Sequence record: PZ179883.1
DNA: 64,000 nt
From: a phage
Reading direction: 5' to 3' (one strand)
The notes under the pieces were generated by a model. The model had not been told where the DNA came from and did no database searches. It saw only the letters and a list, made by a program, of their open reading frames with translations. Below are positions 30,136 to 55,954 of this stretch, one piece after another. Numbering within the stretch: position 1 is the stretch's first letter; each line of letters starts with the position of its first letter. Both the position numbers and the translations under genes were made by a program.

Positions 30136-30429
30136 TTACTCACCTACCACTTCAGCGATGATATTTTTATTATTAAAGTTTTTATCGCAATACAGAACAT
30201 AATTATACTGCATTACACCACCAGACTTAAGCTGTTTTTGCACTTCAGCTTTCATTTCGGGGCGATCGCGCTCAACGATATTCATAATATCTGCTTCAAT
30301 TTGAGTTTCAACTTCAGTCTGATCTGCGGTCATAGACCATTCACATAAATCTTTATCATATCCTGCCATAGCAGGCTGAGCAGCACAAGAAGACAAAGTA
30401 AAAATTGTAGCAAAAATAAATTTTTTCAT
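30136..30429 (-). CDS. sp: Spackle periplasmic protein Sp (97 aa)
   Basis: Signal peptide MKKFIFATIFTLSSCAAQPAMA; 97 aa; position 61.3 as in T4. Confidence 0.75.
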   Translation of the reverse strand: MKKFIFATIFTLSSCAAQPAMAGYDKDLCEWSMTADQTEVETQIEADIMNIVERDRPEMKAEVQKQLKSGGVMQYNYVLYCDKNFNNKNIIAEVVGE

Positions 30430-30454: not shown

Positions 30455-30490
30455 TATATAGTATCTCAATTTCCAACAAAAGTAAACAGC
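30455..30490 (-). promoter_or_regulatory. T4-type early promoter upstream of sp
   Basis: GTTTAC (rc 30482-30487) and a TACTAT -10 region. Confidence 0.5.
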
Positions 30491-30747
30491 TATTTTAAAA
30501 CTTCTGCATAATCACATGTTACAAACTGTTTCTCTAACTTGACGATTTTACGAAAATACCTTTTACACTGACGAATCTGCCTCTTCGTAGGACGTACAGC
30601 AAACTTAATAAATTCCACTCGACCAAATGGAGGACTTTCTTCTGCTGGAATATCTAGCACCAATTCCCACGTATCTGCAATAAGTGCTTTGAATTGAGTA
30701 TTTTTCCTGACGTTATACGGAGTAGGTTTAAATAAAACAATATGCAT
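30490..30747 (-). CDS. Hypothetical protein (85 aa), 61.4 position
   Basis: ORF. Confidence 0.5.
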   Translation of the reverse strand: MHIVLFKPTPYNVRKNTQFKALIADTWELVLDIPAEESPPFGRVEFIKFAVRPTKRQIRQCKRYFRKIVKLEKQFVTCDYAEVLK

Positions 30748-30748
30748 A

Positions 30749-30931
30749 TTATCCTCGGCAATCTACTTCACATACTTTCTTGTCATCAATGAAAGCTTTA
30801 ACTAATGCTTTATTAACTTCAGCATATTGAGTAGTAGCCCATTGAACGTCATCTTTCATCATTGTGGTTTCTTTAGTAAACATGCTTTCATTCTTAAACC
30901 ACCCCATAAAAACTACCTTTACCAATTCCAT
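30749..30931 (-). CDS. dmd: Dmd, antitoxin against host RnlA/LsoA (60 aa)
   Basis: Translation MELVKVVFMGWFKNESMFTKE… matches recalled T4 Dmd (61.5); directly downstream of gene 41. Confidence 0.85.
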   Translation of the reverse strand: MELVKVVFMGWFKNESMFTKETTMMKDDVQWATTQYAEVNKALVKAFIDDKKVCEVDCRG

Positions 30932-52126: not shown

Positions 52127-52597
52127 TTAATCATGTTTCCACACCCCATCGGTATTTGACCAAAGTCGCTGATTATCTGATCCTCGCCACAGCTTTTTGG
52201 TCGGAAGATTTTTCTCATACTTCCCATCAATAATAACATCAACATATTTAAGCATTTCTAGTTGTTTAATATCTTCAAATTTATATCCTGTCCACAACCA
52301 AATGCTTTTATTGGGATAAAGATTTTTTACTGTTTGAACAATGCAATGAACAACATCTCGGTTATCAGGATAGAGAGGGTCTCCTCCAGTTATAGTTAAT
52401 CCTTCTATATAATCATTATTCAAACATTCAATTAATTGTTCTAGTGTTTCACCAGTGAATGGAACGCCATTTCTAGCATTCCATGTTGATTTATTATAAC
52501 AACCTTCGCATTTATGCAAACAACCTGTAACGAAAAGAACGACCCTGCATCCAGGGCCATTCACAAAATCGCAGGGATAAAATCTATCGTAATTCAT
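52127..52597 (-). CDS. nrdG: Anaerobic ribonucleotide reductase activase NrdG (radical SAM), 156 aa
   Basis: CxxxCxxC cluster motif GCLHKCEGC; ATGA-coupled to nrdD. Confidence 0.9.
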   Translation of the reverse strand: MNYDRFYPCDFVNGPGCRVVLFVTGCLHKCEGCYNKSTWNARNGVPFTGETLEQLIECLNNDYIEGLTITGGDPLYPDNRDVVHCIVQTVKNLYPNKSIWLWTGYKFEDIKQLEMLKYVDVIIDGKYEKNLPTKKLWRGSDNQRLWSNTDGVWKHD

Positions 52598-54411
52598 TGG
52601 TGTTTAACCCTATGCATGATTTCTTTATTTTTGCCAAGATTAAATCCACGTTCATTCGGATTTCCCAAATAACCACAAGTTCTTCTTATTGTGTTCATCT
52701 TTTTAGGATCAGTTTCTCCACAAATAGAACAAACAAATCCGTTTTCAGTAGGAGTCATTTCATGGGTACTTCCACATGTAAAACATTTATCTACTGGCAT
52801 ATTAACACCAAAATAATCTAAATGTTGTGCAGCATAATCCCATACAGCCTCAAGACCCTTTAGGTTATTTTTCATATCAGGAAGTTCAACATAAGAAATG
52901 TGACCACCTGTCGCAATGAAATGATATGGGGCTTCGCGAGAAATCTTTTCAAATGGAGTAATATTTTCTTCTACTGAAACGTGGAAACTGTTAGTATACC
53001 AGCCTTTATCGGTAACATCTTTTACACTTCCATATTTTTCGGTATCAAGTTTACAGAAGCGATAGCACAGGTTTTCAGCAGGAGTAGAATACAAACTAAA
53101 AGCAAATCCAGTTCTTTCAGTCCACTGCTTAAGACGAGCATTCATTTTAGTTAAAATTTCTTGTCCAATATCACGACCGACAAGAATATTCAATTCGTGA
53201 ATACCGATGTATCCTAGGGACACTGAACTTCTACCGTTTTTAAATAACTCAATTATATCGTCATCAGGTTTAAGACGAACCCCGAATGCACCTTCTTGGT
53301 AAAGAATAGGAGCAACAGTCGCTTTAACTCCTTTTAAGGAACTAATTCTACACATCAATGCTTCAAAACATAAATCCATTCGTTCATTGAACAATTCAGT
53401 AAATTTCTGTTCATTGAACTGTGTTCCAATATAAGAATCTAACGCAATACGAGGAAGATTCAGTGTTACAACGCCAAGATTATTACGTCCATCAAGAATT
53501 TCATTACCAGTCGAATCTTTCCATACACTTAAGAAACTGCGGCAACCCATTGGAGAAACAGGAATAGATGAACCTGTGATAGCTTTATTGTTCTTAGCCG
53601 AAATGATGTCAGGATACATTCTTTTACTTGCACACTCTAGAGCAAGCTGCTTAATATCATAGTTCGGATCGTCTTTATAAAGATTAACACCTTCTTCAAC
53701 GAACATAACAAGCTTAGGGAAAATAGGAGTTATCCCATCACGACCAAGACCTTTAATACGATTTTTCAGAATTGCTTTCTGAATCATTCGTTCAGTCCAG
53801 TCAGTTCCCGTACCAAATGTAATTGTTACAAAAGGCGTTTGTCCGTTTGAACTAAAGAGAGTGTTTACTTCATATTCATAAGCTTGAAATGCATCGTATA
53901 CGTCTTTTTCTGTTTTAGATTGAGCATAATTCAACGCATCAGCGATTTGCCATTTTTCTGCATCCTCAATATGTTTTGCATAGGTGCGTTTAACATAAGG
54001 AGAAAGTACTTTATCTACATTCGCAAAAGTCGTTCCGCCGTATTGATGGGAAGCAACCTGTGCAGTAATTTGTGCCATAATTGCAGTAGCAACGCCAATT
54101 GATTTAGGAGTTTCAATCTGTGCATTACCGAGCTTAAACCCGTTCTCAAGCATTCCTTTTAAATCTACTAAACAGCAATTAGTAAATGGAAGAGCAGGGG
54201 AATAATCAATATCATGGAAATGAATAATTCCGCTTTCATGCGCTTTCATAATAAAAGACGGGACCATATTTTTGGCAATGTGTTTAGACACAATACCAGC
54301 CATAAGGTCCCGTTGAGTTGGAAAAACACGAGAATCTTTATTAGCATTCTCGTTTAAAAGGTCTTTATTAGTTTTATGAATCAATCCTTCAATTTCTTTT
54401 TCAATTGTCAT
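52594..54411 (-). CDS. nrdD: Anaerobic ribonucleoside-triphosphate reductase NrdD, intronless (605 aa)
   Basis: C-terminal glycyl-radical motif RRTCGYLG and CxxC zinc site; continuous 605-aa reading frame. Confidence 0.95.
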   Translation of the reverse strand: MTIEKEIEGLIHKTNKDLLNENANKDSRVFPTQRDLMAGIVSKHIAKNMVPSFIMKAHESGIIHFHDIDYSPALPFTNCCLVDLKGMLENGFKLGNAQIETPKSIGVATAIMAQITAQVASHQYGGTTFANVDKVLSPYVKRTYAKHIEDAEKWQIADALNYAQSKTEKDVYDAFQAYEYEVNTLFSSNGQTPFVTITFGTGTDWTERMIQKAILKNRIKGLGRDGITPIFPKLVMFVEEGVNLYKDDPNYDIKQLALECASKRMYPDIISAKNNKAITGSSIPVSPMGCRSFLSVWKDSTGNEILDGRNNLGVVTLNLPRIALDSYIGTQFNEQKFTELFNERMDLCFEALMCRISSLKGVKATVAPILYQEGAFGVRLKPDDDIIELFKNGRSSVSLGYIGIHELNILVGRDIGQEILTKMNARLKQWTERTGFAFSLYSTPAENLCYRFCKLDTEKYGSVKDVTDKGWYTNSFHVSVEENITPFEKISREAPYHFIATGGHISYVELPDMKNNLKGLEAVWDYAAQHLDYFGVNMPVDKCFTCGSTHEMTPTENGFVCSICGETDPKKMNTIRRTCGYLGNPNERGFNLGKNKEIMHRVKHQ

Positions 54412-54881
54412 TTTAAACTCTTTCTAAGCTGCTTCTTAAATGAAGCTATTAACTGTGTTTTGGTGTCAGATTCATTATATTCAAATCCTCTTTGAAGCAT
54501 CTCGGCCATCATTTCCTCTTTTCCTAAACGAGAAAATTCCTTTGATTTATCTCCAACAAAGTTAGGGTGAATATTGTTTTGGGTGTAATCGGATTTTAAA
54601 TAAGTAAGTAAATTTTCTAACCATTCAAGATAATCAACACCTTGTCCCTTTAAGCCAGAACGATTAAATTTATGTTTCATTTGACCTTCTGCGGCATTGC
54701 AGAGATTACAAAGCAATCCACGTACCTTTCCTGCTTTTGGTCCATTTAATTCATGGTCATGATCAAGATGATTAGCTTGAACATCAGGATTTAGTTCTCG
54801 TTGGCAAATTAAACATTTACCGTTTTGTGCATCATAAAATTTCTGTTTTTCTTCTTTATATAATTTGCCAGTCAATAACAT
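54408..54881 (-). CDS. 49: Endonuclease VII gp49, Holliday junction resolvase (157 aa)
   Basis: Zinc-site CLICQ…CNLCN and catalytic HLDHDH; 157 aa as in T4. Confidence 0.92.
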   Translation of the reverse strand: MLLTGKLYKEEKQKFYDAQNGKCLICQRELNPDVQANHLDHDHELNGPKAGKVRGLLCNLCNAAEGQMKHKFNRSGLKGQGVDYLEWLENLLTYLKSDYTQNNIHPNFVGDKSKEFSRLGKEEMMAEMLQRGFEYNESDTKTQLIASFKKQLRKSLK

Positions 54882-54923
54882 AATAAAACCCTTACCTTAA
54901 ATAGATAAGGGTATTTATTATTT

Positions 54924-55100
54924 TTAAGTATTGTAAAACATTCGATGCAATCGTTTATACTGTCGAATCATCTTTTTAGTAGGACGAGAATAGGTTCCTA
55001 CGCAAGTGGTCATATGAGGGTCCGTAGAATGTCCTTTAATAAAAAGTTTCCAAACCTTACCGCCATTTAACTTTTCAGTATAAACCAATTCGGTTTTCAT
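54924..55100 (-). CDS. Small ORF (58 aa) whose C-terminus duplicates the pin-like gene
   Basis: Manual translation MKTELVYTEKLNGGKVWKLFIKGHSTDPHMTTCVGTYSRPTKKMIRQYKRLHRMFYNT; last 16 aa nearly identical to the 167-aa ORF. Confidence 0.35.
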   Translation of the reverse strand: MKTELVYTEKLNGGKVWKLFIKGHSTDPHMTTCVGTYSRPTKKMIRQYKRLHRMFYNT

Positions 55101-55136
55101 TAAAATGTCCTGTCAGAAAAAGAATTTTGAGTTTTT

Positions 55137-55640
55137 TCAAGTATTATAAAACATTTGATGCAATCGCTTATATTGCCGAATCTTTTGGTCAGAAAAAGAA
55201 ATTTGAGTTTCAAGCCATTCAATGTACTCTGCGGCAGCTTGCATCAGGTTACCTTCATAGCCATCGTTATTTTCTTGCGCAGCTAATTTAGCTAATGCGT
55301 ATGAAATACGTTCACCTTGAAAAGAGGCTTCAGGCTTCTGAACATCTTGGCTAGTTCTCTCTACAACTTCTTCAATTTCGCCATTTTCGACTGATTCAGT
55401 ATTCCACAAGCACCAATACGTAATTGGCTTATCGTAGATGTTAATAATCTTTCCGTCGGAAAGTTCAATTTCAATAATTCCAGTATCAGGTTCTATATCA
55501 TCTTCACATTCTTTTGCAAGTTCACGAACTTTAAAGACAGTACCTGCACTAAGTTCCGGCCAGTAATTACACAGCCCTATATCAACACGATTAATTCTAA
55601 ACCACTTATCTACTGTAATCATGTCCCATCTCCATATCAA
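55137..55640 (-). CDS. Hypothetical protein (167 aa), candidate Pin (protease inhibitor) by position
   Basis: Position upstream of gene 49 as T4 pin; identity not verified. Confidence 0.5.
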   Translation of the reverse strand: MIWRWDMITVDKWFRINRVDIGLCNYWPELSAGTVFKVRELAKECEDDIEPDTGIIEIELSDGKIINIYDKPITYWCLWNTESVENGEIEEVVERTSQDVQKPEASFQGERISYALAKLAAQENNDGYEGNLMQAAAEYIEWLETQISFSDQKIRQYKRLHQMFYNT

Positions 55641-55744
55641 TTAAGTCATTTATCGTTGGTTCATTATATACTGTTTCTTCATCAGTGTAAACCGGTTCTT
55701 CCGGCTCTGGCTCTACAGTTTCCCATCTAGCCGCCCACCAAGGT

Positions 55745-55954
55745 TTAACCCCGAAGCTTATTAAGTTCTTCATAATCAATCCAGGATTCTAATCCTGATG
55801 GCAAATCAGATTCAATTTCCCAAAGAAGTTCTTCAATTTTCTGAAGACGATCTAATTCTTCGGCTGGAATAGTAACCATTGACGGAGTTCTTGATACACT
55901 AATATCGTAAATCATATTTACCCCAGTTTGACCATGCAATCGCCATATTTCCAT
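55745..55954 (-). CDS. Hypothetical protein (69 aa)
   Basis: ORF. Confidence 0.5.
   Translation of the reverse strand: MEIWRLHGQTGVNMIYDISVSRTPSMVTIPAEELDRLQKIEELLWEIESDLPSGLESWIDYEELNKLRG

Follow-up and report, generated by a model that had tools for sequence, protein, structure and literature searches.

Gene order and direct repeats between pin and gene 49

We examined the interval between pin and gene 49 in a 64,000-nucleotide (nt) stretch of phage DNA (record PZ179883.1; hereafter the window), and in particular a 58-amino-acid (aa) open reading frame (ORF), ORF58, whose 3' end resembles that of pin. The window is a Tequatrovirus (T4-like) genome, and its positions 54380-55680 are 98-99% identical to many Escherichia, Shigella, Yersinia and Salmonella phages. 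Two direct repeats at this junction probably mark a gene fusion, by which pin gained the end of a TifA-family gene, together with the retention or re-acquisition of the donor gene. All genes under discussion lie on the minus strand; upstream of pin come 49.1 and then more small genes, and gene 49 anchors the variable interval on its downstream side. The features of the interval are the following.

54408..54881, minus strand: gene 49 (endonuclease VII, 157 aa), from the ORF list; all matching phage records carry the endonuclease VII label
54888..54912, minus strand: hairpin and T-run separating the stop of ORF58 from the start of gene 49, from a terminator scan (10-pair stem, TTTATTATG tail)
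54924..55100, minus strand: ORF58, 58 aa, assigned to the TifA family (Pfam DUF7279, phrog_3272)
54924..54969, minus strand: repeat 1, copy 2 (tail 2), the native 3' end of ORF58, encoding IRQYKRLHRMFYNT and a stop
55100..55135, minus strand: fossil of the unfused pin end, 36 nt, translating as KTQNSFSDRTF and a stop
55108..55111, minus strand: AGGA, candidate Shine-Dalgarno sequence of ORF58, 7 nt upstream of its ATG and inside the fossil, as read from the sequence
55137..55187, minus strand: captured pin tail, 16 codons and a stop (QKIRQYKRLHQMFYNT), where phrog_3272 matches pin residues 147-161
55137-55182, minus strand: repeat 1, copy 1, within the captured tail
55188..55210, minus strand: repeat 2 partner of the fossil, pin codons for ETQISFSD, the last residues of the Pin core
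55137..55622, minus strand: pin (PinA, inhibitor of the host Lon protease), 161 aa from the ATG at 55622

Repeat 1 pairs 54924-54969 with 55137-55182 at an offset of 213 (40 of 46 bases, 87%); by blastn it spans 49 nt at 87.8%, reaching 54921 and 55134. A previous sequence-only reading of this locus had described about 50 base pairs (bp) at 54928-54975 repeated at 55139-55186 with some 90% identity; the repeat stands, with coordinates off by a few bases and an identity of 87-88%. The second short repeat that it placed at 55113 and 55189 was also recovered, as 55112-55134 and 55188-55210 (22 of 23 bases, offset 76). Repeat 1 consists of the codons for IRQYKRLH(Q/R)MFYNT and the stop, repeat 2 of those for (E/K)TQ(I/N)SFSD, and the two C-terminal peptides are as similar as had been claimed, ORF58 ending in KKMIRQYKRLHRMFYNT and Pin in QKIRQYKRLHQMFYNT. 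This similarity is not below chance. The ungapped score of repeat 1 is 31, the best of any direct repeat in 54300-55800, against a maximum of 16 among 200 dinucleotide-preserving shuffles of that region (mean 11.2, standard deviation 1.1; z about 18), and repeat 2, with a score of 20, also exceeds the maximum of every shuffle.

Read on the coding strand, pin ends with A-A-E-Y-I-E-W-L-E-T-Q-I-S-F-S-D / Q-K-I-R-Q-Y-K-R-L-H-Q-M-F-Y-N-T-stop, the stroke being the fusion junction between D (55188-55190) and Q (55185-55187). The fossil frame begins 1 base past this stop in a different frame (K-T-Q-N-S-F-S-D-R-T-F-stop). It is out of the pin frame and untranslated, it holds the 55112-55134 copy of repeat 2, and its TAA overlaps the ATG of ORF58 (TAATG), which in turn ends with R-P-T-K-K-M-I-R-Q-Y-K-R-L-H-R-M-F-Y-N-T-stop. 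Live counterparts of the fossil occur in EcNP1 (ETQISFSDRAF-stop with TAATG) and VR5 (LRFSDKAF-stop with TAATG). The unfused EcNP1 allele has CGAGCA where the window has AGGA, which would work as the ribosome-binding site of ORF58 and replace the translational coupling destroyed by the fusion. We rejected as a gene candidate a 40-aa ORF with a TTG start (55100-55222, minus strand); it is the fossil frame extended back through the pin tail (ending in EKTQNSFSDRTF and a stop), a by-product of the rearrangement.

The 167 aa first given for pin are counted from an upstream TTG, and from its ATG the gene has 161 codons: a Pin core (residues 1-145) and the tail (residues 146-161). The window Pin is 92-98% identical to database Pins. 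It matches Pfam Inhibitor_I24 over residues 4-141 of 161 (1.8e-46) and phrog_2167 over residues 1-146, and residues 147-161 fall outside both of these models, which end at 141-146, and match phrog_3272 instead. Of the changes that separate the pin and ORF58 tails of the window, 4 are synonymous and 1 is non-synonymous. Both tail peptides thus appear constrained, as far as such small numbers go, and this mostly synonymous divergence is consistent with a functional tail.

ORF58 and the TifA family

The sequence-only reading took ORF58 for a small ORF created by duplication of the pin 3' end. The event went in the opposite direction, with Pin as the recipient. Rather than a by-product of duplication, ORF58 is a gene of long standing in its own right, conserved and subject to purifying selection, and it adjoins gene 49 on the upstream side in several Tevenvirinae genera. 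It can be considered a real gene because full-length orthologues are found in Dhakavirus, Gaprivervirus, Mosigvirus-like and other T4-like genera, where pins lack the tail; because its ratio of non-synonymous to synonymous substitution rates (dN/dS) against five orthologues is 0.05-0.26; and because it matches Pfam DUF7279 (PF23945) over residues 7-56 at 62.7 bits, for a cut-off of 24.5. That reading had named, as what would refute it, a conserved independent gene with a diverged C-terminus in relatives; the gene is indeed conserved and independent, but its C-terminus is conserved too. A search for homologous proteins returned 10 ORF58-type clusters, too few for a deep alignment. ORF58 is presumably expressed.

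ORF58 is already present in Pfam and PHROGs (phrog_3272, 3e-34), and a literature search on DUF7279 found nothing. The same gene in the same arrangement, 97.5% identical across the junction, is annotated in the GenBank record of RB32 as RB32ORF078c, with the depositors' remark 'similar to RB69ORF087c, JS98orf087c-like, pin'. That annotation records the similarity only, without the direction of copying, the fossil, the allele series or the link to TifA.

When ORF58 was compared with the whole window by tblastn, a second match was found at 30550-30603, inside an 85-aa ORF (30490-30747, minus strand) that hits the same DUF7279 model at 72.7 bits. The 60-aa ORF upstream of it (30749-30931) we take to be dmd, and a 97-aa ORF nearby (30136-30429) is presumably spackle-like. 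The 85-aa product differs by 1 residue from T4 gp61.4 (TifA; PMC10853763 Table S2), and the ORF can be assigned as the T4 tifA orthologue. Because this orthologue lies elsewhere in the window, ORF58, which sits between pin and gene 49 and not in the dmd-tifA operon, can be filed as a short paralogue in the TifA family and not as tifA itself.

The type III toxin ToxN is the target of TifA, an RNA-binding inhibitor (Srikant et al., 2022, PMC9391042; Guegler et al., 2023, PMC10853763). Its basic C-terminal helix has a conserved Pro-Thr cap, and residues P53, T54, K55, R56 and R59 are needed for RNA binding (PMC9391042; PMC10853763). The same layout is recognizable in ORF58, where the cap and the basic residues that follow read RPTKKMIRQYKR, against RPTKRQIRQCKR in TifA; the helices align pairwise as RPTKKMIRQYKRLHR and RPTKRQIRQCKRYFR, and R39, P40, T41, K42, R46, K49 and R50 are invariant in the 10 ORF58-type proteins, K43 nearly so. 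An hhalign comparison of the ORF58 alignment with eight published TifA homologues gives a probability of 94.9% (E 4e-8). The best AlphaFold2 (AF2) model of ORF58 has a predicted local distance difference test score (pLDDT) of 81.7, is of moderate confidence (the other four models score 52-63, from an alignment of 10 sequences), and predicts strands at 2-9, 15-22 and 31-37 and a basic helix at 42-56 capped by P40-T41, the same architecture as the three-stranded sheet and C-terminal helix described for TifA (PMC10853763). A fold search of the PDB with this model returned nothing significant (best E 0.27) and no functional lead.

The two proteins also differ. TifA has 85 aa and ORF58 58, without the N-terminal 10 residues and the C-terminal extension of TifA; ORF58 adjoins pin and gene 49, whereas tifA adjoins dmd; and outside the helix they can barely be aligned. 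For the loop of about 20 residues around F41 that is implicated in the ToxN specificity of TifA, the observations point both ways: hhalign pairs TifA 25-69 with ORF58 15-56 with only a 3-residue gap, whereas the modelled inter-strand loop of ORF58 has about 8 residues (23-30) and the sequences there are unrelated. Several bona fide TifA homologues failed to neutralise ToxN, and none of the ten homologues assayed was of the short, pin-adjacent type (PMC10853763, Table S2). By analogy with TifA, ORF58 probably binds RNA through its Pro-Thr-capped basic helix and acts against an RNase-type host toxin.

The window thus carries the RPTK-basic helix motif as two full copies, in ORF58 and tifA, and one partial copy in the pin tail. 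The window pin has the same 161-aa length and the same tail as the Pins of T4 and T2. The last 15-16 residues of T4-type PinA (Inhibitor_I24) lie outside the Pin family domain and are the basic helix of a TifA-like protein from K43 on, without the Pro-Thr-Lys cap.

Genes of this family are found beside pin in other configurations, and their association with pin is recurrent. Mosigvirus-like contigs have a DUF7279 gene immediately upstream of pin. A 191-aa protein from a single ENA contig (P0037) has DUF7279 and then Pin fused in frame, in the opposite order, possibly through a sequencing error, and another locus (L024, 1695-2461) also keeps a DUF7279 remnant, with a frameshift, in its pin-gene 49 interval. 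In Dhakavirus and Gaprivervirus (L016, 1808-2283; L003, 1807-2249; L010, 2038-2483), pin is a 57-aa gene for the Pin C-terminal domain only, followed by an ORF of 90-100 aa; that of L016 has WPEL..WCFW motifs resembling the Pin N-terminal domain, which puts the two domains the other way round from T4 Pin. Domain shuffling thus appears to have affected more of pin than its tail. In SP18 (L003), an extra 30-codon ORF (MDALITVFWAGVALFGLLLVLSCTAKLLGY) is inserted after the DUF7279 gene, its ORF58 homologue, and ahead of the hairpin of gene 49. It resembles a small membrane peptide and has no counterpart in VR5, EAWsc9 or Tequatrovirus.

Four alleles and their history

The interval exists as four alleles.

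Allele A (EcNP1, NBG2, KIT03): 148-aa pin ending in ETQISFSDRAF-stop, TAATG-coupled to ORF58
Allele T (T4, T2, ACG-C40): 161-aa pin with tail, no ORF58
Allele X (ECP2301, HY03): 148-aa pin, no ORF58
Allele W (the window, RB32 with ORF078c, JB75, ECO4, APTC-EC-2A): 161-aa pin, fossil and intact ORF58

Counted per database record, duplicate GenBank and RefSeq entries included, the W-specific junction is spanned in full by 114 records and W and A together make up 188, of which A accounts for about 74 Tequatrovirus records. T (about 250 records) and X (about 65) were extrapolated from 23 and 6 rows, respectively, of an evenly spaced sample of 60 of 656 rows.

The junctions relate these alleles to each other. 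That of A (EcNP1) reads TCTGAC CGA GCA TTT TAATG and continues into ORF58, and that of T (T4, T2) reads TCTGAC CGA ATG ATT CAG. T therefore combines the left side of allele A (GAC CGA / GCA) with the right side of ORF58 (AAG / ATG ATT), an in-frame deletion of 137 nt with a breakpoint homology of 0-1 nt at CGA / ATG. X (ECP2301, HY03; CGAGCGTTTTAATACTTGA) is a clean deletion of ORF58, 168 nt between TTTTAAT and TTTTACAAT, that keeps one copy of the AAT / TTTTA-AAT microhomology. In W, the fused pin end (AATACTTGA) is followed by AAAAA and then by the fossil (CTCAAAATTC). If 213 nt are taken out of ECO4 (W), at any point of a 22-nt stretch identical in the two tails, the result is exactly ACG-C40 (T) from pin through the hairpin, and removing 76 nt from the window restores the A-type end, FSDRTF-stop with TAATG. 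An A-type locus of phage vB_VIPECOOM02 (L060, 894-1364) has a 1-nt deletion in TCTGACCGAG, which reads TCTAACGAG; the shifted frame makes pin 8 codons longer and overlaps it with ORF58 by 26 nt.

Comparison with other genera shows which allele is the oldest. In VR5 (Dhakavirus), SP18 (Gaprivervirus), EAWsc9 and the IMG/VR loci L016-L032, the pin gene or pin C-domain gene ends in FSDxxF-stop. The outgroup order is pin or pin C-domain gene, DUF7279 gene, hairpin and gene 49, and the DUF7279 gene is often TAATG-coupled to the gene before it. A pin-borne tail was seen only in Tequatrovirus loci (L011-L015), and the pin models end at 141-146. For these reasons allele A is ancestral, the tail having moved from ORF58 to pin. 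The DUF7279 model also covers the tail of ORF58, and T4-type TifA has the same motif.

We propose the following history. In the ancestor, pin would have ended in (E/K)TQ(I/N)SFSD-xxF-stop, with a stop overlapping the start of the TifA-family ORF58 (TAATG), an arrangement that persists in the A-type Tequatrovirus records, in Dhakavirus and in Gaprivervirus. The 137-nt deletion (GAC CGA / ATG ATT) would then have placed the last 15 ORF58 codons in frame behind pin, yielding the 161-aa Pin. W would have arisen by illegitimate recombination between this fused allele (T) and a diverged unfused allele (A), with a join in the A-run beside a shared CTTGAAA. ORF58 is now flanked by direct repeats of 46 bp, and the pin tail by others of 23 bp. 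Homologous recombination between the copies could remove 213 nt, yielding a T4-type allele, or 76 nt, which would restore the ancestral type. Such repeat-mediated deletions would explain the presence/absence polymorphism of ORF58.

The evidence favours a single fusion event behind all pin tails, since the tail variants RMIQQ (T4), QMIRQ (RB32) and QKIRQ (window) are joined by single substitutions and all pin tails have His-Gln-Met (CAA) where every ORF58 has His-Arg-Met (CGA). Independent fusions for the RMIQQ and QKIRQ junctions are less economical given the RB32 intermediate and the shared Gln, and we set them aside. We also slightly prefer the origin of W from T and a diverged A over an in-place duplication, because the pin tails of T4 and the window are nearer to the EcNP1-type ORF58 tail (2-3 of 48 bases differ) than to the window's own (6-7 of 48). 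This is weak evidence, as the alleles are mosaic.

Several observations weigh against this history. The W junction departs from what a clean microhomology join would give, its period being 213 rather than 210, with three extra A. ECO4 is itself a mosaic, T4-like in the pin core, W-type in the tail and EcNP1-like at the 3' end of ORF58, and such mosaic alleles make tree-like reasoning weak. The order of events is one that we infer, and W could predate T; the three junction variants could likewise stem from more than one fusion event. As for the tail itself, natural 148-aa pins without it are common (the A and X alleles), so that it is dispensable for viability, and AF2 models Pin poorly (pLDDT 65.5, below 50 in the tail), giving no reading of how the tail packs or what it does.

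The history that survives best beside the proposed one, and which we consider possible though short of likely, has W arising first and in place. An A-type allele would have undergone a tandem duplication of about 210 nt between CTTGAAA heptamers, one in the pin codons for W-L-E-T and one at the ORF58 stop, followed by the 137-nt in-frame deletion in copy 1, and T would have formed later by homologous deletion between the tails. The A-type allele does have CTTGAAA at both places, 210 nt apart; tandem amplifications in T4 form at microhomologies of 6-10 bp (PMC9391042); the 213-nt deletion turns W into a real T allele exactly; and the two ETQNSFSD repeats of RB32 are identical over 23-24 nt. However, the three extra A at the junction do not fit, two rare events would be needed in the same lineage, and the tail distances suggest that the tail donor and the resident ORF58 were different alleles, a signal that recombination could have blurred, as in ECO4.

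Either route relies on processes known from T4, which readily makes segmental duplications and deletions at microhomologies of 2-10 bp (PMC9391042). The alleles described here share with them the short direct repeats at junctions, the gain or loss of small accessory genes touching counter-defence genes and, in X, the retention of one microhomology copy. They differ in being fixed natural alleles, one of which owes a chimeric protein to an in-frame deletion, and in the W junction.

The sequence-only reading saw in the repeats the footprint of an illegitimate recombination or of the insertion or excision of a mobile cassette, at a known hotspot for homing-endonuclease genes. Recombination holds, and ORF58 does behave as a presence/absence cassette among T-even relatives; that the repeats are the scar of a seg/mob homing-endonuclease cassette we find very improbable. 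The wider nrd region of T4 carries such genes, and the interval varies in content, SP18 having an extra 89-aa ORF besides its 30-aa ORF. However, about 60 related loci from at least six genera (Tequatrovirus, Mosigvirus, Dhakavirus, Gaprivervirus and more distant T4-like phages) have no mob, seg or other homing-endonuclease gene between pin and gene 49, where the longest ORF is about 102 aa. One of the extra ORFs of about 100 aa in other genera gave only a sub-threshold FeoA match in Pfam; not all of them were run. The T4 homing-endonuclease table lists none at pin/49, the nearest being I-TevII in nrdD, mobC at nrdG/nrdD and mobD (PMC2988022), so the hotspot is not borne out. Deletions and joins among resident sequences account for every allele.

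Harder still to sustain is that duplication of the pin 3' end created a new and probably meaningless 58-aa ORF. Taken alone, the window is compatible with it (a shared 14-residue ending, a short ORF), but not the full-length orthologues in genera with tail-less pins, the curated Pfam family or the dN/dS values, and the shared segment is the conserved TifA-family helix. We also rejected the idea that a duplication brought its own promoter, as a consensus scan found no promoter-like site between pin and ORF58. Finally, chance, low complexity or an assembly artefact can be all but dismissed: the locus is AT-rich, and DNA of that kind often contains short two-copy repeats (other repeat families were listed), but the repeat scores lie far above those of the shuffles, the copies differ mostly synonymously, and the identical W junction in 114 independently deposited phage records means that it is not an assembly artefact.

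Genomic setting and counter-defence

Three further features lie around the interval.

52594-54411, minus strand: nrdD
55663..55691, minus strand: sigma-70-like promoter candidate upstream of pin, TTTACA-17-TATAAT, 11 of 12 consensus matches (consensus scan only)
55745-55915, minus strand: 56-aa ORF two genes upstream of pin

The hairpin before gene 49 is kept in all four alleles and in other genera, with a sequence conserved in T4, T2, VR5 and SP18, and it forms the 3' boundary of every rearrangement found at this junction. It is labelled as a terminator in the JB75 record and reportedly (Barth et al. 1988) regulates gene 49 translation. The candidate promoter is the likely source of a pin-ORF58 transcript. 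In the window, nrdD is a single unbroken 605-aa ORF, whereas T4 nrdD is annotated as two joined pieces (an intron with I-TevII), and this phage therefore lacks the nrdD intron. The 56-aa ORF matches phrog_3402, 'antitoxin from a toxin-antitoxin system' (6e-40), and gives a sub-threshold Pfam match to the T7 gp5.9 RecBCD inhibitor (20.3 bits, cut-off 24.5). Its place is taken in T4 by 49.2 and 49.3, and it may be a further counter-defence gene near pin.

A more speculative extension, which we think unlikely as a whole, is that Pin and ORF58 form a small counter-defence pair against toxin-antitoxin systems, in which Pin would block the antitoxin-degrading Lon and ORF58 would be a second, loop-poor RNA-binding inhibitor of the TifA type with another RNase-toxin target. 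The helix grafted onto T4 PinA would then be functional and not a neutral passenger; it might tether PinA to RNA or ribosomes, or keep part of the activity of the lost gene.

The direction of copying, the allele series, the fossil, the kinship with TifA and the capture of the helix by PinA were not found in the literature that we searched, the coverage of which is incomplete. The mechanism of genome change is ordinary, recombination at short repeats being well documented in T4, and the whole amounts to unremarkable micro-evolution of a phage. One point in it is modestly new: in PinA, the classic Lon inhibitor of T4, the last 16 residues are a captured copy of a TifA-type RNA-binding helix. These observations explain a small oddity of many T-even genomes and correct the direction of the event inferred from it. 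About 190 sequenced Tequatrovirus records and several other genera carry a short TifA paralogue immediately upstream of gene 49, and natural allele pairs exist both for the 148-aa and 161-aa forms of Pin and for phages with and without ORF58. The locus thereby bears on how phages assemble their counter-defences against toxins.

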